Below, in pieces: positions 1 through 42,674 of a stretch of 64,000 bases of DNA (position 1 is the first letter of the stretch; each line of letters begins with the position of its first letter). The notes below the pieces were generated by a model. The model was given only the letters and a program-made list of their open reading frames with translations, was not told the DNA's origin and searched no databases. Where the stretch lies: IMG/VR virus record IMGVR_UViG_3300048854_000232, positions 230,600 through 294,599 of that record, one strand, 5' to 3'. The position numbers were made by a program, and so were the translations under genes. Source of the DNA: a virus.

Positions 1-54
1 GCCGCTGTTGGATAAAGTGTTCGACTGCTTTGTCCCCCTTACCAGGATCTCGTA

Positions 55-681
55 ATGTTCATCAACGCAAGCAGTATCGAGAACTTCGACCATCGCATTG
101 TCGAGGGTGTTCACGTCACACACAAGTTCGGCGGGCATGTGTTCAAGGTTCTCAAGGCCGACCACTCCAGTGCCGTCTTGACCGTGGAGTGCGTGCATTG
201 CGAGGAAGACTGCTGGATGAAAGTCGGCGAGACCGAGGACAACCTCATCCGCCGTTACAGCTACCTGACCCCACTGGAGGCTGAGATCATGATGGGATTG
301 AAACCTACCTCGAAACCGGAACCGCCGGTGAAGCCCAACACGATCCAGTTCCGCTGGCATCGCGGTACGCTAGACGAATCGATGGCCACGGCCGTCCAGA
401 TCGAACCCACGATCGCCGCCCTGATGGCGGTGCTCAACAAGGACGCTCTGGTGCAGACCGTGGTCACGGAACTGCAGATTGAGTTCTACGCCTTCGATGA
501 GCGCATCCAACAACCCCTGTACATGGTCAGCAGTAAGACGCAAGGTGTGTTTGGTTGGCTCGACCATCCGTTGCGCGACTTTGCCACCACGCCGTATGTT
601 CCGGTCGACGAAACCGCGACGATGGCCTCGTCATTTCAGTCGATGCTACGAGACCTCGTTAATCGACAAGCAACCAAGTGA
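55..681 (+). CDS. hypothetical phage protein
   Basis: 208 aa ORF with AGGA upstream; C-terminal FRWHRGTLDESM segment resembles small phage proteins. Confidence 0.7.
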   Translation: MFINASSIENFDHRIVEGVHVTHKFGGHVFKVLKADHSSAVLTVECVHCEEDCWMKVGETEDNLIRRYSYLTPLEAEIMMGLKPTSKPEPPVKPNTIQFRWHRGTLDESMATAVQIEPTIAALMAVLNKDALVQTVVTELQIEFYAFDERIQQPLYMVSSKTQGVFGWLDHPLRDFATTPYVPVDETATMASSFQSMLRDLVNRQATK

Positions 682-697
682 CCAGGTAACCGAAACT

Positions 698-724
698 GTT
701 TCAACCACACATTACCCTTGTACA
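698..724 (+). promoter_or_regulatory. putative phage early promoter (TTTCAAnnAyACATTAC motif)
   Basis: GTTTCAACCACACATTACCCTTGTA in an intergenic gap; near-identical copies at 3865, 22143, 42781; resembles the phiKZ early TATTAC motif. Confidence 0.6.
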
Positions 725-747
725 CACCAGAGTCCTAGGGAGCGACT

Positions 748-1371
748 ATGAACGACAATGTGATAAACATGGGTGATGCGCGCGCTGCGTTCCAGCACGC
801 CTCTGCTCATCAGCGGTTGAAAGGGTCGGGCATGCCGGACTGGCTGATCGATGCGGTGATCGCCTACGGCAAAGCACACAACTCGGAACTGGCCAAGCAT
901 CTCAAGGTCACACCGTCGGATGATCCCCTGGTTGCGTTTAACATCCAATCGGAGGCGGACGACGACCAGACCTGGATGTTTAGCGTGCTGGGCGCGGCCG
1001 AGGGCGACGATGACGAACTCAGGGCGTTTACGCTGCGAGTCATCCAAGAAGGAGAGATGGACTTCGTCAACACTGACGTGGTGCATTCGGGTCGACTGAC
1101 CGACGGGGAAGAGATCATGCAACCCCTTCAGCCGTACTTCGATTGGCTGACGACCGCGGTGGGTGAAGGCGGCGTCCCCTCGTTGTTGGGCACTCTCCCG
1201 GCGCTGTTTGCATACATGATGGTTTACAGTCTCGTCATCCGCAAGCGCATGGAATCCAACGGCGAATTCACCATGTTCTTCTGGCGCACAGAGTCCGTCA
1301 GTGGCAGGGGCGACTTCTTGGAAGTCCGCGTTCATTTCGACACCATCGAAGCGCTTAATAACCGCACTTAA
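748..1371 (+). CDS. hypothetical protein
   Basis: 207 aa ORF with GGGGAG RBS, downstream of the promoter motif. Confidence 0.75.
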   Translation: MNDNVINMGDARAAFQHASAHQRLKGSGMPDWLIDAVIAYGKAHNSELAKHLKVTPSDDPLVAFNIQSEADDDQTWMFSVLGAAEGDDDELRAFTLRVIQEGEMDFVNTDVVHSGRLTDGEEIMQPLQPYFDWLTTAVGEGGVPSLLGTLPALFAYMMVYSLVIRKRMESNGEFTMFFWRTESVSGRGDFLEVRVHFDTIEALNNRT

Positions 1372-1413
1372 CGATAACCTTTCGGGCCACCTGGCCCATC
1401 ACTGGGAAGCACC

Positions 1414-1965
1414 ATGCAACACGATACGACTCAAGGGACCACTCGCGTAGAACGGATCAATTACGCGGCGATGGTTGAAGAGCTGAGTGTGAAATCCGCA
1501 CAATATCGCCAACGGCTGCTCGCCGATGACCCGACTAATTTCGAAATTATCACGCGCCGCGACTCCGATTACCTCAGCATGTACGGTATTGGGGTGACGG
1601 GTCCCCGACAGACAGGTAAGACGTTCCTGGCCTACGACATGATGTTGGAAGATTCCGACACCCTCATGGTCGTGGTAAATTCCCTGTTTGCTACGGCGGC
1701 GATAGATAACATCGTGCACCTGTCCGCAGACAGTCTTGATCTGGATCGACTGAAGTGGCGGATTGCGACGGGACGAGATGTTCTGCGCGTCAATGCCTTC
1801 GCCCAGTCTAACCCGTTGGACCCAGACAACCCGCTACACACGGTCAAGCGCGTGGTGGTGGATGAGGCCTATTACATCCAGGACAAATGCGGCGCTACCT
1901 TGCGCGACATCGCCCACTGGGCGCGTCTGGGTGGACAGAGTCCCGAGATCGTTATCATCAACTGA
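1414..1965 (+). CDS. small P-loop NTPase (terminase/helicase ATPase-like)
   Basis: Walker A GPRQTGKT and Walker B VVVDEA in 183 aa. Confidence 0.65.
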   Translation: MQHDTTQGTTRVERINYAAMVEELSVKSAQYRQRLLADDPTNFEIITRRDSDYLSMYGIGVTGPRQTGKTFLAYDMMLEDSDTLMVVVNSLFATAAIDNIVHLSADSLDLDRLKWRIATGRDVLRVNAFAQSNPLDPDNPLHTVKRVVVDEAYYIQDKCGATLRDIAHWARLGGQSPEIVIIN

Positions 1966-2040
1966 TTCGCTTTTAGGAGCACCACCGACACGGTTGTCAA
2001 AACCCTTCTGCTGTCTAAACATAAACAAGGAACATGTCAC

Positions 2041-2490
2041 ATGCAGGAACTCATTACCGTTCGCACCGGCATCAGCCACGAGCACATCGGCACCGAGCTG
2101 GTCGAACTCATCGCCCAGCAGCTGCAGATCGAAGGCGGTAACGCGGACCAGGTCGTCCAGGGCGATTTGCTCTTCGGCATGACGATCCCCTCGATCCGGA
2201 TCGAGTACGAAGCCTCGTACAACATCGTCAGCAGCGATGGTGCGTACACCTTCGCCCAGACGGTCAACCTCGCCGGCGAAGGCGACGACGAAGACGCCGT
2301 ACCGCTGCGTCTGATGGAACTGCGTGCCGCTTGGCTCAACCGCAGCTACCGTGACGTCATGCGTGGTATCGCCAACATTGGCGCCGCCATCGAGAATGGC
2401 AGTCACGTACTGCCGGCCGGTACCTCGGCTGCGAAGTACCTCAGCGACCTCGCATACGCCGCGGTGGACGCATTTCCCGCGTCGAACTGA
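2041..2490 (+). CDS. hypothetical protein
   Basis: 149 aa ORF, AAGGA RBS, strongly biased codon usage. Confidence 0.75.
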   Translation: MQELITVRTGISHEHIGTELVELIAQQLQIEGGNADQVVQGDLLFGMTIPSIRIEYEASYNIVSSDGAYTFAQTVNLAGEGDDEDAVPLRLMELRAAWLNRSYRDVMRGIANIGAAIENGSHVLPAGTSAAKYLSDLAYAAVDAFPASN

Positions 2491-2503
2491 TCGGGGCATA
2501 ATG

Positions 2504-2530
2504 CGCTAGCCCTTCGGGGCTAGCGTTCTC
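2504..2530 (+). terminator. hairpin terminator
   Basis: CGCTAGCCC-TTCG-GGGCTAGCG, preceded by GGCATA. Confidence 0.6.
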
Positions 2531-2547
2531 ATTCAAGGAAGTTTGTC

Positions 2548-3213
2548 GTGCAAGTACCTCTGATTCTGTTTTCCGGTGGTCTGGACTCCACCTACCTGCT
2601 CAACTTTCGTTTGAAGCATGCGCCCGCCGACACGCTTTATGTCAGTGGTGGCCAGCATCCGTTGAAGATCGAAGCAGAGACCAAAGCATCCGCCAAGATT
2701 CTCAAGTTGATCGAAGCCGATCAGCCGTACAAAGTGCGCAACCGTCTGACCCTCGATTCGCTATCCTTCGCCGGCGCTCCTGCAACGGGCTTTACCCAAG
2801 CCCCTGCGTGGTTGTTCGCCGCGTTGTACCACGCCGATCCCGAGGTCCATAACGCGGTCGACATTGCCTACGTGATGGGTGATGAGATCACTGGCTGCAT
2901 CCATCAACTGGAGCGTGCCTGGGAAGCGCTGTGGTCGGTGGGCAAGCAGGGTCCGTTGGTTCCGCTACAGTTCCCGCTCAAGATGCACCGTAAGGCGCAG
3001 TTTCTCCAGGAGCTGCCGCAGAAGATCCTCGACGAGGTCTGGGTGTGCGAGGTGCCGACCAAGCCCGGTAAGACCATCAAGGCCTGCGGTCAATGTGCGG
3101 CATGCGTTCGCTCGTTCCACGAGTGGAGCCGTTTCAATAACCGCGCCACCATGCGCGCGGTCCCATCAGGCTACCGGAAGTTGGACAAAGATCCGCAAGT
3201 CATTGAGAGGTGA
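2548..3213 (+). CDS. queC: QueC-like PP-loop ATPase (7-cyano-7-deazaguanine synthase family)
   Basis: N-terminal FSGGLDST PP-loop; C-terminal Zn motif WVC...CGQCAACVR. Confidence 0.8.
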   Translation: MQVPLILFSGGLDSTYLLNFRLKHAPADTLYVSGGQHPLKIEAETKASAKILKLIEADQPYKVRNRLTLDSLSFAGAPATGFTQAPAWLFAALYHADPEVHNAVDIAYVMGDEITGCIHQLERAWEALWSVGKQGPLVPLQFPLKMHRKAQFLQELPQKILDEVWVCEVPTKPGKTIKACGQCAACVRSFHEWSRFNNRATMRAVPSGYRKLDKDPQVIER

Positions 3214-3216
3214 GTC

Positions 3217-3543
3217 ATGTTCCTTAAGAAGGTGATCCCTAAGACCGTTCCCAATACCGATCCGCGTGTTCGCGATCAGAACCCCGAACGGATGATGTCG
3301 CCGATCGAGCGCGAAGCCGTGGCGATTCGATACTACGGTTGGGCACCGCATCCGCCCTTTGGTGCCCGCCTCGTTATCGCCGACCGCGATATCTTGAAGT
3401 CGGTCAACAATCGGGACATTCCCGACGAGGTACCGCATCACCTGATGGACCTGACGCCGGAACAGCGTGCGTGGGTTCTCGCACTGCCCTACGAGATACG
3501 GGTCAACTACGACCTTCCCCTCAACGAACAATTACCGCCTTAA
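3217..3543 (+). CDS. hypothetical protein
   Basis: 108 aa ORF with GAGG RBS, directly after the queC-like gene. Confidence 0.6.
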   Translation: MFLKKVIPKTVPNTDPRVRDQNPERMMSPIEREAVAIRYYGWAPHPPFGARLVIADRDILKSVNNRDIPDEVPHHLMDLTPEQRAWVLALPYEIRVNYDLPLNEQLPP

Positions 3544-3610
3544 GTAACACCCGTTTGGCAGGTCACGGTGTCTGGGAGCGCCCGGACACCTTAAGAGGAA
3601 AGACGAAACA

Positions 3611-3865
3611 ATGAAGCTGTTGCTGTTAGCTGTAATTTGGATCGGTGGAAGCTTGACATTGTTTATCGACGGCTATCGAAACCCTAAGCCGGGCACCCTT
3701 CCGCAGTTCCTTCCCCTGTTGTTCGCCGCGATCCTCTGGCCACTGCTGTGGCTGACTACGGCGACCATTCTTTTTTTGGCAGGCGTGTGGTCGCTCCTTT
3801 ACACGCCCTACCTCACCTGGAAGCTTCGCCGCGAAGCACGCCCCAAGCGCCGAAAGCGTAAATAG
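3611..3865 (+). CDS. small membrane protein
   Basis: two hydrophobic segments and a basic C-terminus. Confidence 0.65.
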   Translation: MKLLLLAVIWIGGSLTLFIDGYRNPKPGTLPQFLPLLFAAILWPLLWLTTATILFLAGVWSLLYTPYLTWKLRREARPKRRKRK

Positions 3866-3893
3866 TTTCAAATATACATTACCCCTTGGTAAG
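3865..3893 (+). promoter_or_regulatory. putative phage early promoter
   Basis: GTTTCAAATATACATTACCCCTTGGTAA matches the recurring motif. Confidence 0.6.
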
Positions 3894-3921
3894 CTCCGCA
3901 TTGACGCACCCGCGTCTCCTG

Positions 3922-3950
3922 GCCCTTCCCTTTTCGGGAGGGGCTTTTGT
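3922..3950 (+). terminator. intrinsic terminator
   Basis: GCCCTTCCC-TTTTC-GGGAGGGGC followed by TTTTGTT. Confidence 0.7.
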
Positions 3951-3993
3951 TCGCTAACCCTCCTCACGTAAACCATCCATCAGGAACCCCTCG

Positions 3994-4563
3994 ATGTCCG
4001 ACCCGGCAATCTATACCCGGCCCTTGCTGCCGATCTATATCAAGAACCATTCGCGCAACACCTTCCTGATGGACAGTCGCGTCCCGGATCGGGTGGTGAC
4101 GACCGAAGCAGGAACCTTCCGCACCCGTCCCCTGAAGTTAGGTGGCATCGACCTCTTGGGTGCATGCGCCGTGCACGAGATCGGTGTGCGCTATCCCACC
4201 TACAGCACCGACTGCCTGGGGGTGGGTACGCTCAAAGTCCGCTCCGTGTTCGTGGTCAACCCGCGCGGTGAGATCATCGAGGTGGAAGTGAACGTTCCTT
4301 TCACCAAGTCGACTGAGGGTAACTACATCGATCAGCAGGTGTGGGCCACCGTCGCCCTGCCGGTTAAGTACGGCGAGCCCTGGGTGGCGGATTCCCGCCT
4401 GTCGGCGAAGGTGAACCCCGAAACGGGCATCCTTGCCTGGGCCCTGGCGCCCAGTAAACGACACGATGGATGGGCCGCCGTCGGCATCGTCCTGGACGGG
4501 GAGATCTGGTCGCATGACCGTTACGAGCAGAAGTACACCTACGCGGGAGACGCGCATGTCTAA
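3994..4563 (+). CDS. stand-alone homolog of the major capsid protein insertion domain, copy 1
   Basis: colinear motif matches to MCP aa ~230-447 (TRPLKLGGIDLLGA vs TAPLAMGPTVDLLGI; FTKSTEGN vs FVKSIEGN). Confidence 0.7.
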   Translation: MSDPAIYTRPLLPIYIKNHSRNTFLMDSRVPDRVVTTEAGTFRTRPLKLGGIDLLGACAVHEIGVRYPTYSTDCLGVGTLKVRSVFVVNPRGEIIEVEVNVPFTKSTEGNYIDQQVWATVALPVKYGEPWVADSRLSAKVNPETGILAWALAPSKRHDGWAAVGIVLDGEIWSHDRYEQKYTYAGDAHV

Positions 4564-5101
4564 GCGCCTGGATCGGGTGGTGTATATCACCCCACGCTAT
4601 CAGTCCCACGGCAACGGCGGGCTGTTCTTGACGGACACGCGCGTGCCGGACCAGTACATGACCACGCAGGACGGCGAGGTCATTATCACCCGCCCGGTCC
4701 GTAACAACGTCAGCCTGATCAATCTGTCCCGTGATGAGAGTTGGCACGCCAAAGACGGCGACAACGTGACCTACGAGCTGTGCATGGATACGTTGCGCAT
4801 TCAGTCGGTGTATCTGCTGACCCCCAATCAGCAACTCATCCAGGCCTCTTCTCCCTACCCGATGGGGTTCACCCCGACCAGTGAGGACCTCATGAAGGGG
4901 TACATCAGGGGCGGTCTCAAAGTGCCGCGTCACTCGCCGCCGACGCGGTACGACGGCTTCGTGTCAGTGGGGGTGGACATGACGGTCGATTGCAACGAGG
5001 GGATACTCCACTGGGATCCGGATGTCGGCCATGGCTTCCGTCTGCTGGCTGTGGATGCGATCGGTGAGATCCTGGTGCGCAGTCGCTCGGTGTTTTCCTA
5101 A
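4556..5101 (+). CDS. stand-alone MCP insertion domain-like protein, copy 2 (more diverged)
   Basis: paralog of 3994-4563 (FLTDTRVPD vs FLMDSRVPD; TLRIQSVYLLTP vs TLKVRSVFVVNP); ATG at 4556 with GGGAG RBS overlaps the upstream stop. Confidence 0.6.
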   Translation: MSKRLDRVVYITPRYQSHGNGGLFLTDTRVPDQYMTTQDGEVIITRPVRNNVSLINLSRDESWHAKDGDNVTYELCMDTLRIQSVYLLTPNQQLIQASSPYPMGFTPTSEDLMKGYIRGGLKVPRHSPPTRYDGFVSVGVDMTVDCNEGILHWDPDVGHGFRLLAVDAIGEILVRSRSVFS

Positions 5102-5125
5102 ACGAACCTAACAAGGAGTAAGACG

Positions 5126-5611
5126 GTGGACTCGATAGTAACCGAACCAACCTACGAAGTTATCGAGTCTACCGCTTCCTTGGACTGGAAAGCGTTCTAC
5201 CGCATGTTGATTGCGAACCGGGTACATGACACCTACTGCGCCCGAGTCCGTAGCTTTCTGTGGCGTGCTTACACCTACGGACGGCGTGGCGAGGTCCCGG
5301 TCTTTCTCTACCATCTACTGGCTCGCGTCGATGGGGAGCTCGCAGGTATCGCCTGCGTGGGCGATAACGGTAAAGGGCAGCCTTACGTGAACCTCTACGT
5401 GCGCCCTCGGTTTCGCCGTCAAGGCTTGGGTGAGGCATTGCTGTCGAAGGTGATCGCTGCCTGTCCGGACGTGTGCGCGTTTCCTACGCCTACCTCCCGG
5501 GCGTTGTACGTAAAGCATCGCCTGGAGCTCATCTCGCTCAAGCAAGCCAGCCGCGCCCTCAAAGGCATCCAGTTCCGCGCTGAGATGCGTGGACGTCCCG
5601 ATTATTTCTAG
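5126..5611 (+). CDS. GNAT-family acetyltransferase
   Basis: motif A NLYVRPRFRRQGLGEALL; AAGGAG RBS with GTG start. Confidence 0.8.
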   Translation: MDSIVTEPTYEVIESTASLDWKAFYRMLIANRVHDTYCARVRSFLWRAYTYGRRGEVPVFLYHLLARVDGELAGIACVGDNGKGQPYVNLYVRPRFRRQGLGEALLSKVIAACPDVCAFPTPTSRALYVKHRLELISLKQASRALKGIQFRAEMRGRPDYF

Positions 5612-5651
5612 GATGAACATGAACGATATCGTCATACCCGCTGAAGGTGAA

Positions 5652-6212
5652 ATGTCACGTCAGCACCGAATCATACTGGGTAGCAACTATTACGGCCTCT
5701 ACGTACTGGGCATGGCGTCCACCGACTTCGAGCGAACCGATGAAGACTGCGGCATGGACAACATTGGCGTTCCGCGCCGGTACGAGGACCTCACGGAGAA
5801 ACATCGGGAGAAGCTCCTGAGCGTGTTGGCCAACGAGGCGGAGCTGAAGAAGATGCTGAGCGAAGGCCGGCCCGTCACGGTGGCGCTGGATCCACAGCCA
5901 CCGATCGATGTTTCCGACTGGACCGGGAAACCCACCCTCAAGCTGTTCGTGTACGAGTCGCCCTATGCAGGGGAGCACCATGCGGCCGTACTTGCCTTTA
6001 CCAAAGAGCAGGCGTTGGCGTTGATCAACGCGGCGAAGGTGAAACGTTTCAACGAGGACTGGGCGGCGAAAGAGAAAGAACTTCTCGCTCGCACACCCGT
6101 CCCGTCGTACACGCCGCCCTCGTACATTTCCGCACGCGATGACGTCAAGCTCGAAGAGATCAATGAAGTCCTCGTAGGTGCGGTGCAACTTTTCGATTCC
6201 GGATACGATTAA
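5652..6212 (+). CDS. hypothetical protein
   Basis: ORF fills the gap between the GNAT and recJ; start uncertain (5613/5619/5652). Confidence 0.65.
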   Translation: MSRQHRIILGSNYYGLYVLGMASTDFERTDEDCGMDNIGVPRRYEDLTEKHREKLLSVLANEAELKKMLSEGRPVTVALDPQPPIDVSDWTGKPTLKLFVYESPYAGEHHAAVLAFTKEQALALINAAKVKRFNEDWAAKEKELLARTPVPSYTPPSYISARDDVKLEEINEVLVGAVQLFDSGYD

Positions 6213-6223
6213 TAGGATCCCTC

Positions 6224-7933
6224 ATGGCAAAGCAAACCATCCGTCGTCGTACGGTATCTGCGACCTCGGCGGCATGGCCGCAGCACGTCCATCCCGTCTT
6301 GCAGCGTATCTACGCTGCCCGCGGTATCGAGAACCCTTCCGACATCGAGCATCGCCTGGCCCGCCTGCTAAATCCCAACCTCTTGGGTGGGATGGACGTG
6401 GCGGTCGATATCCTGATCAAGTCCATCCAAGCGAACAAGCGCATCACGGTGGCCGGTGATTATGATTGCGATGGGGCCACAGGCGCCGCTGTCGCTGTCA
6501 GAGGCCTGCGTCTATTGGGGGCGACCGACGTACACTTTATCGTCCCCGATCGCTTCGTACACGGTTACGGGCTGACTCCCGAGCTGGTCAACGCGATGGA
6601 CCCCGGCACCGAAGTCATCGTCACCGTCGATAGCGGCACCTCGAGCTTCTCAGGCGTCAAGGCGGCAAAAGAAAAAGGTCTGACCGTGGTCATTACCGAC
6701 CATCACCTTCCCGGTGAGGGTCTGCCCATTGCCGATGCTATCGTGAACCCGAACTTGGATGGGGAGACTTTCCCTTCGAAGATGTTGGCGGGTGTGGGCG
6801 TGATGTTCTACCTGCTGATCGCCATGCGTGGGGAGATGCGTAACCGCGGGATCTTCTTGGATGCCGGTCCGGATCTGTCCACGCTGTTGGATCTGGTCGC
6901 GTTGGGTACGGTGGCCGATCTGGTGCCACTGGACTTCAACAACCGGATCTTGGTTGATGCGGGATTGCGCCGGATTCGCAGTGGTCAGGGTAACGCCGGT
7001 ATCAAGGCGTTGATGGAGATTGCCGAACTCCCCCCGGAACGACTGATTGCCAGTAACATCGCCTTCGGTATCGCCCCACGTCTGAATGCAGCCGGTCGGC
7101 TGGAGAACATGTCACTCGGCGTAGAGACCCTCCTGTCTGATGACTTGGGTCAGGCCCGGGTCATGGTCCGTCAGCTCGATGCGATCAACAAAGAACGCAA
7201 AGAGATGCAAGCGGAGATGGTCAACGAAGCCGAACGCATGGTCGCCACAGCTGAACACATCGACAGCATCGGCGTGGTGGTGTTCGATCCGTCCTGGCAT
7301 GCCGGTGTAGTAGGTCTGGTCGCCTCCAAGCTGAAAGAAAACCTGCATCGTCCGGTCATTGCGTTTGCGCCGGCTGGTGAAGGTAGTGATGAGGTGCGTG
7401 GTTCGGGTCGTTCGATCTCGGGCTTCCATCTGCGTGATGCCTTGGCCGTGGTCGATGCGAAGAACCCCGGTCTCATGCCGAAGTTCGGTGGGCACGCCAT
7501 GGCCGCGGGTTTGTCGTTGAAGATGGCTGACGTACCGCGCTTTGCCAAAGCCTTCGATGAAGTCGCCACCAAGATGCTGGATGAGGAGACACTGCAAGCA
7601 GTTCTCTTCACCGACGGGGAACTGCCGGCCGGACACATCAACATCCACATGGCCTACTACCTGCGTGAAGCCGGCCCGTTTGGACAGGGCTTTCCCGAGC
7701 CGATGTTCGACAACGAGTTCGAGGTAGTGGCCTGGCGTACCCTGGGTGCGAAAGGTATCAGCCTGGCCCTGAAAGATCCCCGCGATGGCGCGGTGGTCTC
7801 CGGGACCATGTTCTTCGCCGACGGCAATATCCCTCCACCGACTAAGGTGCGCGCAGCTTTTGAAATTCAGATAAACACCTGGATGGAACGGGACAGTTTA
7901 AAACTCCTCATTCGTCACCTCGAACCGATCTAA
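6224..7933 (+). CDS. recJ: single-stranded DNA exonuclease RecJ
   Basis: DHH-family motifs GDYDCDG, TVDSG, ITDHH, LGTVAD, PRLNAAGRL, RGSGRS, GGHAMAAG, PFGQGFPEP. Confidence 0.95.
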   Translation: MAKQTIRRRTVSATSAAWPQHVHPVLQRIYAARGIENPSDIEHRLARLLNPNLLGGMDVAVDILIKSIQANKRITVAGDYDCDGATGAAVAVRGLRLLGATDVHFIVPDRFVHGYGLTPELVNAMDPGTEVIVTVDSGTSSFSGVKAAKEKGLTVVITDHHLPGEGLPIADAIVNPNLDGETFPSKMLAGVGVMFYLLIAMRGEMRNRGIFLDAGPDLSTLLDLVALGTVADLVPLDFNNRILVDAGLRRIRSGQGNAGIKALMEIAELPPERLIASNIAFGIAPRLNAAGRLENMSLGVETLLSDDLGQARVMVRQLDAINKERKEMQAEMVNEAERMVATAEHIDSIGVVVFDPSWHAGVVGLVASKLKENLHRPVIAFAPAGEGSDEVRGSGRSISGFHLRDALAVVDAKNPGLMPKFGGHAMAAGLSLKMADVPRFAKAFDEVATKMLDEETLQAVLFTDGELPAGHINIHMAYYLREAGPFGQGFPEPMFDNEFEVVAWRTLGAKGISLALKDPRDGAVVSGTMFFADGNIPPPTKVRAAFEIQINTWMERDSLKLLIRHLEPI

Positions 7934-7943
7934 AGGAAGACCG

Positions 7944-8456
7944 ATGCATTTTGGGCTTATCTACAACGGCAAAACCTACCAGCTGCAATACCCGAACTTG
8001 ATCCTCGACCCCAACCAGGTCAAGCCAAAGCCAATCACTCCGTCGGATGGGGAAGTTCCCTCCAAGCCACGGCGTCCGCTGGCATGGGAACCGGTGCGTG
8101 AAGAGACCACGCACTTCTTCGATTTTATCTTCAACGATTCCAAGTGCCATCCACTCACCCTCGAACTGCAATACGCCGACGATAAGACGGTTGTGCCGGC
8201 AACCGCGGAAACGGAAGAACTGAACTTCGCCCGCTTCGTGATTTGGATGGCCCAGTACCTGAACGGCCAGTTGTACGCCACCGGAATCGATCTTCGGATC
8301 ATGTACGTCGACCAGAACAGCAGCGAAGAGCGCGAGAACGGTGGGTTGGCCACCCACCGGTGCCGCTATCCCGTACCCGCGGAGGCCTTCCAACTTGGCG
8401 CAGGCCGGATAAAGGTGACCTTGCCCCTGCAGCCGTATAACCCACCCCGGGGCTGA
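7944..8456 (+). CDS. hypothetical protein, YLxGQ paralog family
   Basis: 170 aa; contains MAQYLNGQLYA. Confidence 0.7.
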   Translation: MHFGLIYNGKTYQLQYPNLILDPNQVKPKPITPSDGEVPSKPRRPLAWEPVREETTHFFDFIFNDSKCHPLTLELQYADDKTVVPATAETEELNFARFVIWMAQYLNGQLYATGIDLRIMYVDQNSSEERENGGLATHRCRYPVPAEAFQLGAGRIKVTLPLQPYNPPRG

Positions 8457-8457
8457 T

Positions 8458-8844
8458 ATGAAAATCATCACTGGTGAAGAACTCCTGACCTATCCGGCAG
8501 GGACCGTGTTTTACGTGTACGACCACTACACCTTCGAACGACTGGCCATCAAACGAAGCCCGCCCGAGGCCTTTGATAAGAACGGTTACAACGCGTTCAT
8601 GCTCCAGTACCTGGGTGACTACATCTCACTCGAAGGCAGCGATCACACGGGCGAGATGATCGAGCAGATCGACAAGGCCATCGAGACGGGCGGGGAACTG
8701 CGCGTGGACCGTGAAGTCACCGAGCGTTGGATCCTGGAAAAGATCGAGCTGCAAAAGTTCGCGGTGTTCGACAGCGCCGATACCCTCGCTCTGATCCAAG
8801 TGCTCCAGGCCACACTTCCGAAAGAGGTAGAGCATGTCCTCTGA
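8458..8844 (+). CDS. hypothetical phage protein
   Basis: N-terminus MKIITGEELLTYPAGTVF resembles the N-terminus of 9257-10195. Confidence 0.7.
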   Translation: MKIITGEELLTYPAGTVFYVYDHYTFERLAIKRSPPEAFDKNGYNAFMLQYLGDYISLEGSDHTGEMIEQIDKAIETGGELRVDREVTERWILEKIELQKFAVFDSADTLALIQVLQATLPKEVEHVL

Positions 8845-9247
8845 ACAACCCCAAGACTGGTGGGCCCTGAACCTACTGATGCTGCACAACCACAGTGGCT
8901 TTCGTAAGCTGGGCGATGCCCTGACCGAAGCCGATGCCAACCGACTCATGGGGGAGGACGACCTCCTCCTCGCTCGGGGCTCCATGGTCGATGAAGTGAC
9001 CCAGATCCTCGCGAGTGAGGATGCCCCGTTCAAAGTTTACCTCTTCGAAGCTGAAGGCGTGGATGAGGGCGAGTACTGCCAGCTATCCGGCCGGTGGCAG
9101 TTGACGGCGATCGGCGATACGAGCATGACCGAGAACCAGTTGGTGGCCCAACGGATGAAGCACCGCAAGTTTGAAGAGTCGGCCCTGGTCTGCCTCTACG
9201 ATGGCGAAACCGCTCGTCGCATCTTCAAGAAAATCACTACTCAGTAA
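8834..9247 (+). CDS. hypothetical protein
   Basis: 137 aa; GAGG RBS; overlaps the upstream gene. Confidence 0.7.
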   Translation: MSSEQPQDWWALNLLMLHNHSGFRKLGDALTEADANRLMGEDDLLLARGSMVDEVTQILASEDAPFKVYLFEAEGVDEGEYCQLSGRWQLTAIGDTSMTENQLVAQRMKHRKFEESALVCLYDGETARRIFKKITTQ

Positions 9248-9256
9248 GGATACCCC

Positions 9257-10195
9257 ATGCGCGTCGTTGACCGTGATACGTTCCTGACCTTGCCTCCGGG
9301 CACGTTCTACCAGAAGTTCTACTACACTCCCAAGGACACCCCGTACCGCGGTCAGCTGTTCGACGCGCTGCACATCAAGGGCGACACCCTGGTGACGGGC
9401 GAGCTGGAGGCAAGTACGTTCCAGACGTTCCCTTTCCCGGGGGTGAATTTCGAAGGGATCACCACCGCTAGCTACGAGGCGGTGCTGGAAGATCTGGCGA
9501 ACAATCGCAATGCCACGTATTCGCTGGTCTTCGGCGTCTGGTACGCCGATCATACTTACGATCAGCAGCCGCTTCGTAATGAGGACGGTCCGCTTTTTGC
9601 TGTGTGGGATCGCCAGGATGTCGTGCGCCTCGTCCTTCGTGCCACGGCGGCTCTGAAAGAAGGCTACGCGCTGGACATCAACGACAACCCGTTCGTCGAG
9701 CCGATCGAAGAGCCCAAGCCCGTCCACCCCCAGAAGGTCATCAACGAGCTGATCCTTCCGGAGGTACACTTCGACACCAGCGACCCGAGCTTGTCGGCTG
9801 TGGAACGCGCCAACGATCGCGCTCCCCTGCGGCGGTTGCAATGGCGCACCTGCGCACCGCACAACCTGATGTTCTGGTTCGTCTTCAACTACCTTCCGCC
9901 CGAGGACCTGACCACGATACATTTCGGCAACGAGATGTCGGGCAGTTTAGCGTTGGAGCTGATCGATCTCATCACCGGTGAGCGGGTGGCGCTCAGCGAT
10001 AAGCATGACTGGCGTGCCATGACGCAGGAGCTGGCGGCGTACTTCGACGGGCAGTTCGTCAAGCAGGGCTCCAAGCTACGTACCTCGTTCCTGGACGCCA
10101 AACCGTTCAGTACGGGAATCGAGCGGGTGTACTTCACCAGCCAGGCCTGGCGTGACGCCCTGGATGGCCGCAAGCCAAGCATCTACCTACGTTAA
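9257..10195 (+). CDS. two-domain hypothetical protein (8458-like N-terminus fused to a YLxGQ-family domain)
   Basis: MRVVDRDTFLTLPPGTFY N-terminus; C-half has LRRLQW...LAAYFDGQ. Confidence 0.7.
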   Translation: MRVVDRDTFLTLPPGTFYQKFYYTPKDTPYRGQLFDALHIKGDTLVTGELEASTFQTFPFPGVNFEGITTASYEAVLEDLANNRNATYSLVFGVWYADHTYDQQPLRNEDGPLFAVWDRQDVVRLVLRATAALKEGYALDINDNPFVEPIEEPKPVHPQKVINELILPEVHFDTSDPSLSAVERANDRAPLRRLQWRTCAPHNLMFWFVFNYLPPEDLTTIHFGNEMSGSLALELIDLITGERVALSDKHDWRAMTQELAAYFDGQFVKQGSKLRTSFLDAKPFSTGIERVYFTSQAWRDALDGRKPSIYLR

Positions 10196-10201
10196 GGACT
10201 C

Positions 10202-10444
10202 ATGATGGCCGACCTCACCGCACTACAGTACCTGATCCAGGTACACACCTACGGCGCAGGTCGGTTCTGGTCGGTGGAGAATCCGAAGAAGGCAGCCAGT
10301 AATTCGGAGCTCCGCCGCTGGATCGACCAGAAGAGCCTGTATATCAACGGCCGTCCGGTGACTTGCAATGAAGTCCTGGACTACGACTTCGACAGTGTGA
10401 TCTTGTTCCCTAAGAATGCTCGTCGTCGCGTCACGCTCGTCTAA
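10202..10444 (+). CDS. small S4-like RNA-binding domain protein
   Basis: SNSELRRWIDQKSLYINGRPV resembles the S4 motif SxSEARRxIxQGxVxING. Confidence 0.55.
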   Translation: MMADLTALQYLIQVHTYGAGRFWSVENPKKAASNSELRRWIDQKSLYINGRPVTCNEVLDYDFDSVILFPKNARRRVTLV

Positions 10445-10455
10445 AAGGTAACTCC

Positions 10456-11010
10456 ATGTCAAGCGACAATCTCGTTGAATCAGAACCATCCGCCTTGCGC
10501 CTGAAGCTGGCGGGTTTGAAGCCCCGTGCGATGGCCGCGTACTTACCACCCTCGCGTAAACCGGAGAGTGCCTCCCGACTGCATCTGGTTCCTTTGCGGG
10601 ATGGTTGGGAACCGGACGTCGAGATCCACTTTATCCGCGGTAAGCGCGGGGGTGTGCAGGAACGCGAGACCTTGCGGTACTCGCTTCATCGGCAACCGCA
10701 TGCGTTTTTCAGCACGCACAAACCCAACAGCGCCGGTCACTTCGAACGCAGCCCGGTACCGCGGGATGACGACGATAACATCGCTCCCGAAGCGAAGGTC
10801 TTTTTCCGCGACCAGATCAACCGCATGGTGACTCACCTGCGGGGCCAACTTTACGCGATGGACCCTACCATCAAGCTGATGCACGTGGCGCTGTGGACCG
10901 TCGCTTATGGCACCGGCTTGCGCACACCGCAACTGCAGAACACCTGGGCGTCGGATTTCGAATCCGGTCTACGTGGGGACGAGCAGTGTGGGCTCTTCTA
11001 CAACAACTAA
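10456..11010 (+). CDS. hypothetical protein, YLxGQ paralog family
   Basis: contains MVTHLRGQLYA. Confidence 0.65.
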   Translation: MSSDNLVESEPSALRLKLAGLKPRAMAAYLPPSRKPESASRLHLVPLRDGWEPDVEIHFIRGKRGGVQERETLRYSLHRQPHAFFSTHKPNSAGHFERSPVPRDDDDNIAPEAKVFFRDQINRMVTHLRGQLYAMDPTIKLMHVALWTVAYGTGLRTPQLQNTWASDFESGLRGDEQCGLFYNN

Positions 11011-11031
11011 CTTTCCGCCCGGGAATCCAAC

Positions 11032-11376
11032 ATGTCCATTGAAGTACGCATTCAAGTTGAACCGCAGTTGCTTGCCGCCCTGAAAGAGAAGCCTGTCCAC
11101 CTGGTCGACGTGATCGAGCAGGCTATCGAACGGACGGTGGGACGGGAGAACATGAACCCGTGTCTCATCCGTTGCGAACCGTTCGGTGTCGACATGCTGG
11201 GGTCAGACAAAGAAGAACTCACTGATCTCGTCGCGACGAAGACGTGGTTCGATCGGATGGGCATCGACTACGACATCCGCCCAACAGCAACAGGCGGGTG
11301 CGACTTGTTGGCTCTCATGCATACCTTCACCTTCGATAGTGCAGGTAAGCTGATCGAAAAGTGCTTTACAGACTAA
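11032..11376 (+). CDS. hypothetical protein (paralog of 11395-11763)
   Basis: MSIEVRIQVEPQL...FTFDSAGKLI. Confidence 0.7.
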   Translation: MSIEVRIQVEPQLLAALKEKPVHLVDVIEQAIERTVGRENMNPCLIRCEPFGVDMLGSDKEELTDLVATKTWFDRMGIDYDIRPTATGGCDLLALMHTFTFDSAGKLIEKCFTD

Positions 11377-11394
11377 TAACAAAGGAACGCGCAC

Positions 11395-11763
11395 GTGACC
11401 ATTGAAGTACTTATCACCGTCGATCCTCAGTTGCAGGACAGTCTGCTGGATCGGCAAATCTCTCTCACCAGTGAAGCCTACAAGGCCTTCGAAAAGGTTT
11501 TGGCCCCGGAGGAACTGGCGCCCATCCATCTTGGCTGTGAAGCCACGTTGGACGGGAAGATTGAGAAGCCCACCGAAGAGTCCATGATCCGTCAGGCCAT
11601 GACTCGCATCGGGCAGGTCAATACCGGACAACCGTGGTGGCCGGATTTGTACAGCTTCGCACCCGGGGCGACCTCGTCGCTGGAAGTCTCGATCAGTGGC
11701 CTGGCGTCGACGTTCTTCTTCGACGCCAACGGTAAGCTCCTTCACCTCAACCAGGATTACTGA
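11395..11763 (+). CDS. hypothetical protein (paralog of 11032-11376)
   Basis: MTIEVLITVDPQL...FFFDANGKLL. Confidence 0.7.
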   Translation: MTIEVLITVDPQLQDSLLDRQISLTSEAYKAFEKVLAPEELAPIHLGCEATLDGKIEKPTEESMIRQAMTRIGQVNTGQPWWPDLYSFAPGATSSLEVSISGLASTFFFDANGKLLHLNQDY

Positions 11764-11765
11764 CC

Positions 11766-12062
11766 ATGACCATCGTCATCAACATCGTTTCCGACCAGCC
11801 GCGCGAAGGTAAGACCTCCGTGGCCGCCGTGATCGCTCGTGCCCTCAAGCAGTCCTTCCCGGATAACGAGATCGTCGTGGATTGTCAGGACGGTGACTTC
11901 GACAAGAAGTACAGCATGCGCGACATGGACATGAAGATCTTCAGTCCTATCCATATCAACGACAACAACGGCCACGGCGGTGCGGCGGAGCACAAGGTCG
12001 TCCGCACCCGCGTCAACGAGCAGTTCCCCGCGTTGGAGCAGGTCGATGAATCGGTGGGTTGA
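11766..12062 (+). CDS. small protein with a P-loop-like motif
   Basis: IVSDQPREGKTSVAAVIARAL; only 98 aa. Confidence 0.55.
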   Translation: MTIVINIVSDQPREGKTSVAAVIARALKQSFPDNEIVVDCQDGDFDKKYSMRDMDMKIFSPIHINDNNGHGGAAEHKVVRTRVNEQFPALEQVDESVG

Positions 12063-40445: not shown

Positions 40446-42674
40446 ATGGCACTTCACAAGAATCACGGCGACCTCCGTCACCGCAAGCTCCTGGACCAGG
40501 TCAAGTCGACCATCGACACCCAGGCCGATGATCTCGCGACCGATGCCCAGACCCAGGGTCTGATCTCGCTCGAATCGCTCGATCCGGCGACCTTCAACGC
40601 ACTCGACCAGCACGTCGAAGGCGTGGAGCGCTCGATCGAAGGCATGCTCACCTCGATCGGTTTCGAGGGCTTCGACGACTCCACCGTCATCGGCAAGCGC
40701 GTCAAAGCCAACGCCCTCAAGGCCGGCGCGATCGTCGCCATGGCTCACGGCAACCCGGTCGCCTACGCGCGCCAGGGTTACGAAGGCCAGGCCAAGGCCA
40801 ATGGCAGCATCAAGATCGGTGAAGTCATCAGCGGCGGCGTCGCCGGCTCGATGGACTACCGCGACGCGATCGGCCTCGAGTCGTTCGACGAGCGCGAACT
40901 GCGCGAGTACCTGCCGTACTCCGTCGTCTTCAACGTTTTCGCCAACCGCCAGGACGACTTCTCGGAAACCCTGTTCCCGACGACCGTCGTCACTCCGGAC
41001 GCTGCAGGCCTCGACGTCTCCGTCAACCGCTCGCTGGTGTTCCAGGAAGTCCGTCACGCCATCACCGGCCAGCCGGCGAACTTCAAGAAGAAGAACCTCA
41101 TCGACGCCGCGGTGGACTTCACCATCCTCGCCGACGAGACCACCCGCCTGATCCCGGTCCGCCAGACCGACGGTTCGAACGCTTCGTTCTTCGTCGACCC
41201 GGCCGTCATCGCTCCGTCGTTCGCCGCCCTCTCGGGCGTGTCGATCCCGACCGCACCGCTGGCCATGGGCCCGACGGTCGACCTGCTCGGTATCTCGCAG
41301 TTCCCGGCCCTCATCGGCGCCGGTATCATCGACAACACCGACTCCATCGACGGCCGCATCACCCTCGAGAACGTGTACATGCTCGCCGAAGCTGGCGAAG
41401 TGGGTATCAAGTTCCCGACCAAGAACCTGCCGCGCAACAACTTCGTGAAGTCGATCGAAGGCAACGGCCGCGAAATGAACCTCCAGTTCAGCTCGCGCGA
41501 CCTCGTCCTGAACGCTGCCACGGTTCACGCCGACGGCACGACCCCGACCAACACGGCGCTCGCGCTCATCCGTACCAGCAACTACACGGTTCGCGTGTCG
41601 GTTGCTATCAACGGCGTGGCCAACGTCGAGTTCGGTAACGTGCAGGTCTACACCTCGCCGCTGCAGGTGGTCTCGATCACCGACGCGAACGGCGTGGACG
41701 TGTCCCTCACGCAGGGTAACGGTCAGACGATCGCTGCTGCCATCGCTGGCATGAAGCTGGTCGGTTACGACCTCCACGTCAACCGCACCAACCTGAACCG
41801 TCGTACGCGCGGCCACCTGCTCGACACGACCTGGGAAACCGAGCGTTACCCGATCTCGCTGGGCAGCCCGCTCTCCATCCCGTCGCCGGCAACGGCTACC
41901 AAGGATGCCGCCGACCTCAAGACCCTGATCAACGCCGCTCGCGTGCGCAACTCGAACAATGCCGTCACGGCGCTGTTCAACATTGCCGACGCCCTGCGCG
42001 CCTACGTCAGCGGTCCGAAGCCGGCCGATGGTTCGATCCCGAACGTCGGTGGCATGGGTCGCTTCCTGGTCCAGCCGTTCTACGAAGAGCGCAACTTCGA
42101 CCTGCTCCTGGCGATCAACAACGTCAAGTCGCAGGATCGTGCCCAGGACGTGCAGAGCGCCCTCGTCAACGTCTGCCGTGACGTCTCGTACCGCATGTAC
42201 CGCGACACCCGCATCCAGCCGGCCATCGACGCTCTCAACGGCTCCGCCGGCGAGACCCCGACGCTGTTCGTCGGTTGCGACCAGGTGCTCGAGCGCCACC
42301 TCATGGTGACGGGCGACACCCGCACGTTCGGCACGGCCTTCGACAAGTTCGAAGTCAAGTCGACGTTCGACAAGCGCATGCGCAACAAGATCGTGCTGAC
42401 GTTCATCCGTCCGCAGGTCTCCGGTCCGGATCCGCTCTCGTTCGGTACCCACGCCTGGATCCCGGAGCTCACCTCCTCGATCATGGTCAACCGCAACGGT
42501 GCGACCATCAAGGAAGCCATGGTCCAGCCGCGTACGCTGCACGTGAACAACCTCCCGGTTCTCGCGGTCATCAACGTGCTGAACCTGACGGCAGCGCTGT
42601 CGCAGAAGATCGACACCGGCCACTTCGCCGATGCGATCGGCCAGGGCAACCTGGGCGGCATCAACTATCCGTAA
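40446..42674 (+). CDS. major capsid protein (phiKZ gp120-like)
   Basis: 742 aa; extreme codon bias; RQDDFSETLFPTTVV, NLNRRTRG, VQPRTLHVNNLP; synteny after DnaB; S/G-x-E protease sites in the N-terminus. Confidence 0.92.
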   Translation: MALHKNHGDLRHRKLLDQVKSTIDTQADDLATDAQTQGLISLESLDPATFNALDQHVEGVERSIEGMLTSIGFEGFDDSTVIGKRVKANALKAGAIVAMAHGNPVAYARQGYEGQAKANGSIKIGEVISGGVAGSMDYRDAIGLESFDERELREYLPYSVVFNVFANRQDDFSETLFPTTVVTPDAAGLDVSVNRSLVFQEVRHAITGQPANFKKKNLIDAAVDFTILADETTRLIPVRQTDGSNASFFVDPAVIAPSFAALSGVSIPTAPLAMGPTVDLLGISQFPALIGAGIIDNTDSIDGRITLENVYMLAEAGEVGIKFPTKNLPRNNFVKSIEGNGREMNLQFSSRDLVLNAATVHADGTTPTNTALALIRTSNYTVRVSVAINGVANVEFGNVQVYTSPLQVVSITDANGVDVSLTQGNGQTIAAAIAGMKLVGYDLHVNRTNLNRRTRGHLLDTTWETERYPISLGSPLSIPSPATATKDAADLKTLINAARVRNSNNAVTALFNIADALRAYVSGPKPADGSIPNVGGMGRFLVQPFYEERNFDLLLAINNVKSQDRAQDVQSALVNVCRDVSYRMYRDTRIQPAIDALNGSAGETPTLFVGCDQVLERHLMVTGDTRTFGTAFDKFEVKSTFDKRMRNKIVLTFIRPQVSGPDPLSFGTHAWIPELTSSIMVNRNGATIKEAMVQPRTLHVNNLPVLAVINVLNLTAALSQKIDTGHFADAIGQGNLGGINYP

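Follow-up and report, generated by a model that had tools for sequence, protein, structure and literature searches.

Two adjacent genes in the accessory region of a virus with a phiKZ-type major capsid protein (MCP) encode free-standing homologues of one internal part of that protein, its I domain. This assignment, already proposed by an earlier sequence-only reading of the same DNA, is confirmed by profile searches and by comparison of predicted structures. Both genes, hereafter ORF A and ORF B, belong to a real, undescribed family derived from an already known domain. Our best reading of their function, ranked ahead of a role in capsid docking or assembly, is that they act as soluble, non-virion decoys for a host immune protein that senses capsids, in the likeliest case a TIR sensor of the Thoeris type; we propose it tentatively, at somewhat short of an even chance.

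The window, i.e., the whole 64,000-nucleotide stretch that was analysed, forms the end of a virus record 294,599 bases long (G+C 59%), and the sequencing runs matching best are soil metagenomes. The two genes announced by the sequence-only reading are both present: ORF A (3994..4563, plus strand) encodes 189 aa and ORF B (4556..5101, plus strand, ATG at 4556) encodes 181 aa, the start of the latter overlapping the end of the former by 8 nt. The pair lies outside the head-gene clusters of this genome, in a same-strand accessory run where it is flanked by a QueC-like gene (2548-3213), a GNAT acetyltransferase gene (5126-5611) and a RecJ-like exonuclease gene (6224-7933). Frameshift or pseudogene status was ruled out for both, the two frames being intact, with codon scores similar to those of their neighbours. 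ORF B had been described as a further-diverged paralogue of ORF A, and direct comparison of the two proteins agrees with this (E 2e-9, 25% identity).

The parent domain is encoded in the same window. The MCP gene (40446..42674, plus strand) specifies a 742-aa protein of the phiKZ gp120 type, matched by PF25620 (E 1.5e-211), by phrog_3231 and by the MCPs of the PDB, and its closest MCP relatives are those of the Xanthomonas phages RTH11 and LucasX (~50%). Its I domain (41133..41816, plus strand) covers ~residues 230-457, equivalent to gp120 248-472. The gp120 I domain (residues 248-472) is described as an extension of the HK97 E-loop which, in the capsid, packs on the neighbour's A/P/linker junction and also forms I-domain dimers (PMC11297242). 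ORFs A and B are not MCPs: at 189 and 181 aa, against ~720-780 aa for an MCP, they have no N-arm, P or A domain, and no Pfam or PHROG MCP model matches them, in line with the earlier statement that both lack the N- and C-terminal regions of the MCP.

Compared as a single pair by BLASTP, ORF A and its own MCP share 34/113 identities (E 0.001); genome-wide, this pairwise signal is near chance (tblastn E 0.17, phmmer 0.8). ORF B has no direct pairwise match to the MCP, and each of the two proteins is ~20% identical or less to the I domain of its own MCP. Since the pairwise similarity is marginal, profiles were built without window sequences. When the I domains of 69 MCPs of other viruses served as the profile, ORF A matched at E 0.0028 and ORF B at E 0.62, and the two ranked first and second after the MCP among the 3030 six-frame ORFs of their own genome. 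A second profile, drawn from other phages and comprising 21 stand-alone copies, gave E 2.8e-8 for ORF A and 0.12 for ORF B, and the combined profile of I domains and stand-alones, likewise free of window sequence, gave 6.4e-7 and 0.011, the best score of reversed-ORF decoys against these profiles being 0.33. A profile of 56 short database relatives, which had been collected with a profile containing A and B, gave 7.2e-8 and 0.034. Single-sequence searches with ORF A returned itself only or nothing, that of the phage collection with ORF B returned nothing, and neither protein directly matches any family model. A search among short proteins with the MCP domain was also blank although such proteins do exist, so we take these blanks as a sign of low sensitivity only.

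Six of the eight motif pairs that had been matched by eye between ORF A and the MCP fall within the BLASTP alignment, and the last two are in register in our alignment A4. The colinearity claimed with MCP residues ~230-447 stands for the motifs and does not extend to the full length: two peripheral segments, gp120 ~374-392 and ~427-446, are mostly missing from both proteins, and across a partly redundant set of 82 stand-alones their occupancy is 0.1-0.4. A has lost a conserved Arg (gp120 359), and the family's C-terminal NR motif is absent from both A and B; many family members keep a C-terminal R-x-N-x-N-R motif.

The predicted folds point to the same parent. Searched against the PDB, the stand-alone profile matched four MCP sequences only at E <0.03, over gp120 247-470. 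In Foldseek, the AF2 model of ORF A (pLDDT 87.8) matched 8bfl (E 2.9e-8, TM 0.66) and 8y6v (TM 0.66-0.67), and that of ORF B (pLDDT 87.1) matched 8bfl (E 6.5e-7, TM 0.61); at E<=0.001, the PDB matches of both models were phiKp24 and phiKZ capsid chains only (TM 0.57-0.67). There is some circularity in this evidence: the family alignments from which the models were built, with 52 MCP rows for A and none for B, assume the homology. The Atlas single-sequence structure model of A was unusable (pLDDT 0.32). In predicted fold, borders and colinear motifs, A and B resemble the gp120 I domain (8Y6V; phiKp24 8BFL; PF25620), from which they differ in being free-standing, trimmed of the two peripheral segments and devoid of N-arm, P and A domains, and in that their stand-alone homologues are not seen in virion data.

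The sequence-only reading had called for a survey of relatives for similar free-standing domains, and such domains are widespread. An MCP-only profile found extra matches outside the MCP in 17/51 related genomes or records, a floor value because A and B themselves were missed by this first-pass tool. A wider profile run over 59 genomes added RP12 ORF214 (E 9e-20), which is probably phrog_36436 (229 positions), judged by length, and gave weak matches in phiKp24 (gp203), phiKZ, PhiPA3, PA7 and one further genome (G043); with this profile, no stand-alone was found in Goslar, RAY, SPN3US, PCH45, RSL2, LucasX or Xoo-sp14. The full-library search returned 977 matches at E<=0.001, the best 150 of which comprise, by a crude rule, 64 full MCPs, 7 fragments and 79 stand-alone-like proteins (counting A and B, plus some six others that were in the profile). 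Named members are 201phi2-1 gp106, whose gene lies directly behind that of chimallin, and gp282, Phabio gp274, FLC9 gp132 and gp87, and a protein of RTH11. Tandem stand-alone pairs recur in two other genomes (G002, G011), the domain borders are constant across dozens of sequence clusters, and many members carry MCP-like motifs along the whole domain. The relatives, such as phrog_36436, 201phi2-1 gp106 and the RTH11 and FLC9 stand-alones, form one uncharacterised family with A and B, with PHIKZ266 and PhiPA3 gp326 more distant; they are annotated as hypothetical. A literature search, mostly of sources open without a subscription, turned up no account of I-domain genes that stand free or of capsid-fragment decoys, and the accessible part of the Goslar capsid preprint does not mention free I-domain genes.

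Phage phiKZ itself probably has a member. Among 313 ORFs, PHIKZ266 (gp266) matches residues 12-54 of A (E 2.4e-7), and PhiPA3 gp326 was found by the ORF A structure model (E 6e-6); because profile support for the membership of these two proteins is weak (probability 21%), we consider them as probable members only. Their group has shrunk to 143-153 aa. The weak phiKZ match had at first been taken for the decoration protein gp244, and its identity is PHIKZ266. The ORF A model also has weak BFVD matches to many more uncharacterised 110-250 aa proteins of phiKZ-like phages (pEt-SU, Psa21, Noxifer, PhiEaH1, phiKp24, PhiPA3 gp366 and a second 201phi2-1 protein), and the family may have still smaller offshoots. 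Among longer architectures, one protein (L112:4782-6359, G027), encoded immediately ahead of chimallin, has a tandem of two I domains, and in another (L119:4330-5379, G013) a histone-H1-like arm rich in Lys, Ala and Pro precedes the I domain to which it is fused.

Stand-alone copies diverge far faster than the MCP of the same phage. In three related genomes (G011, G012, G016), identity between MCP I domains is 96-100% (2 pairs compared), but between stand-alones of the matching locus it is no more than 57-65%, with dS of 1.0-1.3 and dN/dS of 0.25-0.28; between RTH11 and G003, stand-alones are 43% and MCP I domains 76% identical. A second stand-alone type of the same three genomes (386 aa) is conserved at 94-97%. 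No close pair was available for A or B. On these comparisons, the stand-alone genes are kept by selection and do not track their own MCP, and the high dS may come from ordinary mosaic exchange of accessory DNA. In a quick tree, the end branches of A and B measure 2.2-2.3 versus 0.5 for their own MCP, and A and B fall together with the PHIKZ266 group and with related phages' stand-alones (SH-aLRT 88, on long branches). Since the AU test did not reject a grouping of A and B with their own MCP (p 0.775, the constrained tree being 17 log units higher), we make no claim on a single versus a repeated origin.

Several relatives are fused to, or lie beside, Thoeris antagonists. The scan for fusions covered 25 longer members, and both anti-defence partners that it found, Tad1-like and Tad2-like, belong to this class. 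A Tad2-like domain (PF11195, above cut-off) is N-terminal in P0014, and likewise in L104. P0015 carries a C-terminal Tad1-like domain (PDB Tad1 E 1e-12, phiKZ gp184 E 1e-14), and this fusion recurs in six more proteins (L103, P0007, P0012, P0018, P0041, P0150), five of the Tad1-like fusions having similar N-termini and perhaps going back to one event. The next gene after the stand-alone encodes a Tad1-like domain in FLC9, G012 and G016, and in 201phi2-1 and Phabio such a domain lies two to three genes away. According to a recent preprint, gp184 is the phiKZ Tad1, a non-essential minor capsid protein with an N-terminal anchor that is injected (10.1101/2025.11.23.690004); since it is capsid-anchored and injected, the Tad1-like fusions would fit capsid loading as well as counter-defence. 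Neither A nor B has a Tad1 or Tad2 sponge domain, which is present in fused relatives only.

Among the 83 neighbouring genes at 14 loci (84 less one cut ORF), 0 had an anti-defence Pfam, a search that also missed the Tad1-like domain. Cyclophilin genes adjoin stand-alones in three related genomes (G011, G012, G035), and chimallin adjoins a copy or is two genes from it in 201phi2-1, G026 and G027. A cyclophilin-Tad1-like fusion lies directly behind the stand-alone in G012 (L106:4109-5083), similar genes occur at L107:4162-5163 and L020:5657-6670 (FLC9 gp131), and in G035 the Tad1-like domain is on the I domain itself with cyclophilin in front. In the genome studied here, outside the window (G000:C1:169338-170496), a pair of adjacent ORFs with matches to the Tad1/gp184-like domain (E 8e-10 and 7e-9) are candidate Thoeris sponges, ~64 kb from A and B.

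Homologues of A and B were looked for in virion data, and these datasets are shallow or indirect. In 201phi2-1, gp106 and gp282 do not carry the RefSeq "mass spectrometry" note, an annotation that their neighbours carry; the list of 32 RP31 virion proteins does not include ORF211 (PMC5468394 Table S3); PHIKZ266 has no PDB chain though the capsid is solved, and no solved capsid contains a stand-alone chain, the outer surface of the phiKZ capsid holding only gp35 and gp244. The accessible text of the phiKZ preprint places orf266 within the largely non-essential orf184-304 region, the gene itself being unmentioned there (10.1101/2025.11.23.690004), and the source data of another study give PHIKZ266 a value of 0.81, from which we draw no conclusion (Fig. 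1E, PMC10449902).

The proposed mechanism is modelled on staphylococcal Thoeris, in which ThsB1 binds the major head protein via an intact E-loop and ThsB2, recruited via the P-loop, then makes the signal (PMC12578639). By analogy, A and B would be made as soluble non-virion proteins whose free I domain, an E-loop outgrowth, offers the sensor its first contact without the P domain. The sensor would be held in a dead-end complex, and not switched on, while the real MCP accumulates, and two diverged copies would cover a wider range of sensors. They would act one step before the sponges, i.e., at the sensor and not at the signal molecule that Tad1 and Tad2 bind. A non-activating decoy is our best reading, favoured by the fusions to Thoeris anti-defence domains, by the fast divergence of stand-alones relative to their own MCP, by the absence of homologues from the virion data examined, by the patchy presence of the family together with the position of phiKZ orf266, and by the E-loop contact combined with the missing P domain. 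On the first three of these grounds, all of them indirect, the decoy proposal of the sequence-only reading stands as the leading one; the examples that it cited, CapRel and Lit, which are MCP-sensing defences and exert the same kind of pressure, are triggered by different regions of capsid proteins of the HK97 type, and an E-loop-binding Thoeris sensor fits better. More broadly, nucleus-forming jumbo phages may keep a widespread capsid-domain decoy family, sometimes sponge-fused, that jams capsid sensors such as Thoeris TIR, an extension that we regard as conceivable and rather doubtful.

Other observations weaken the decoy reading. With so low an identity to their own MCP, mimicry by A and B would rest on shape, and the NR motif is lost in both and the Arg in A. 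The E-loop result comes from staphylococcal siphophages and would apply to the phiKZ-type I domain by analogy; of Sau-Thoeris ThsB1/ThsB2 (ThsB1 needing the E-loop), Avs7/8/10 and Dsr1, the source of the pressure that a capsid decoy would answer, none is known to sense a phiKZ-type MCP or an I domain, and Avs7 binds mainly the A domain (PMC13581612). Moreover, gp184 is N-terminally capsid-anchored, so that the fusions of I domain to Tad1 may be capsid-loading devices; the neighbours have no anti-defence Pfam and the virus's own Tad1-like genes are far away; and the 386-aa stand-alone type is strongly conserved.

The main rival, which we consider unlikely though deserving attention, is that the free I domain is a capsid-docking module or assembly modulator that binds MCP monomers or procapsids at the neighbour's I-domain site, chaperoning or pacing assembly, with the fused forms carrying Tad1-like or Tad2-like cargo to the head. 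The contacts and dimers made by the I domain in the capsid suit this reading, as do the retained R-x-N-x-N-R motif, the adjoining cyclophilins and the fact that gp184/Tad1 is loaded by an N-terminal anchor, a position that the I domain holds in 7 fusions. However, with 57-65% identity against 96-100% for the MCP I domain, the stand-alones do not follow the partner assumed for them; A and B are cargo-free and have lost the C-terminal motif; and many relatives that share this type of MCP lack the family, whose genes here lie outside the head-gene clusters. Such divergence, with the long end branches, the shrinkage of the PHIKZ266/gp326 group and the varied fusion partners, would also be expected of a beta-rich core duplicated long ago and exapted as a scaffold for host-facing binding or inhibition, its capsid likeness no longer needed; the MCP-like motifs along the whole domain in many members and the borders kept across dozens of clusters make this quite unlikely.

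Alleles that turn over quickly whatever the own MCP does would equally suit interference, in which the free domain poisons the head assembly of co-infecting related jumbo phages or blocks a capsid-hijacking satellite, and the low likeness to the own MCP would presumably spare the own heads; the fusions with Thoeris sponges point instead to host immunity, and we judge this reading improbable. A decoration or cement protein on the mature head, the alternative raised by the sequence-only reading, is the most improbable of all: the parent domain shares in inter-capsomer contacts and non-essential minor capsid genes can be far from head genes, e.g., gp244, but the virion data on homologues, shallow as these sets are, speak against it, with no stand-alone chain in solved capsids, no ORF211 in the RP31 list and no mass-spectrometry note on 201phi2-1 gp106 and gp282.

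Capsid gene duplication is known from T4, where gp24-type MCP paralogues keep the whole HK97 fold and build vertices. A and B keep one domain only and cannot form a shell. If they are decoys, they would represent a phage way to hide a protein that cannot change, and could serve as bait for the sensors that recognise the capsids of jumbo phages; if docking is their role, they would point to a module for cargo loading or assembly control. In both cases an origin is now assigned to many hypothetical genes, in a family whose sequence clusters number in the dozens and which likely includes proteins of three model phages of the laboratory, and PF25620 will misname some stand-alones "major capsid protein". 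In phiKZ, according to the preprint, only one anti-defence gene was previously known among >200 dispensable genes, which was called surprising (10.1101/2025.11.23.690004).

Upstream of ORF A, a 9-nt promoter-like motif (3874..3882, plus strand) is intergenic and on the coding strand. The pattern, chosen post hoc after looking, has 5 occurrences in the genome (707, 3874, 22153 and 42790 of the window, and ~128479 of the whole record, G000), 5/5 being intergenic and sense against a non-coding fraction of 0.14. We take the motif at 3874 to resemble the phiKZ-type early promoter, of which it is probably a variant; the exact early consensus, in the form presumed here, is absent from this genome, and 0 sigma-70 promoters were found. 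The genes had been said to sit just behind an early promoter: the motif is real, and "just behind" overstates the case because an intrinsic-terminator-like hairpin (3921..3952, plus strand; 10 pairs at 3921-3945 plus a T tract) intervenes before ORF A, which weakens the argument for early expression. With the same presumed consensus, 201phi2-1 gp282 and Phabio gp274 are second genes behind an early motif, and 201phi2-1 gp106, PHIKZ266 and PhiPA3 gp326 have none directly ahead.

The ~70 nt from the motif through the terminator-like hairpin (3884-3952) include a second small hairpin and could possibly form a small RNA or an attenuator leader. One RNA run, searched over window positions 1-12000, gave short contigs elsewhere and none listed on A or B, and is uninformative for these two genes; its contigs cover the GNAT and RecJ genes, with DNA carry-over possible. 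Finally, an 8-nt motif occurs in 14 upstream regions genome-wide, all sense and 0 antisense, and is probably terminator-associated.
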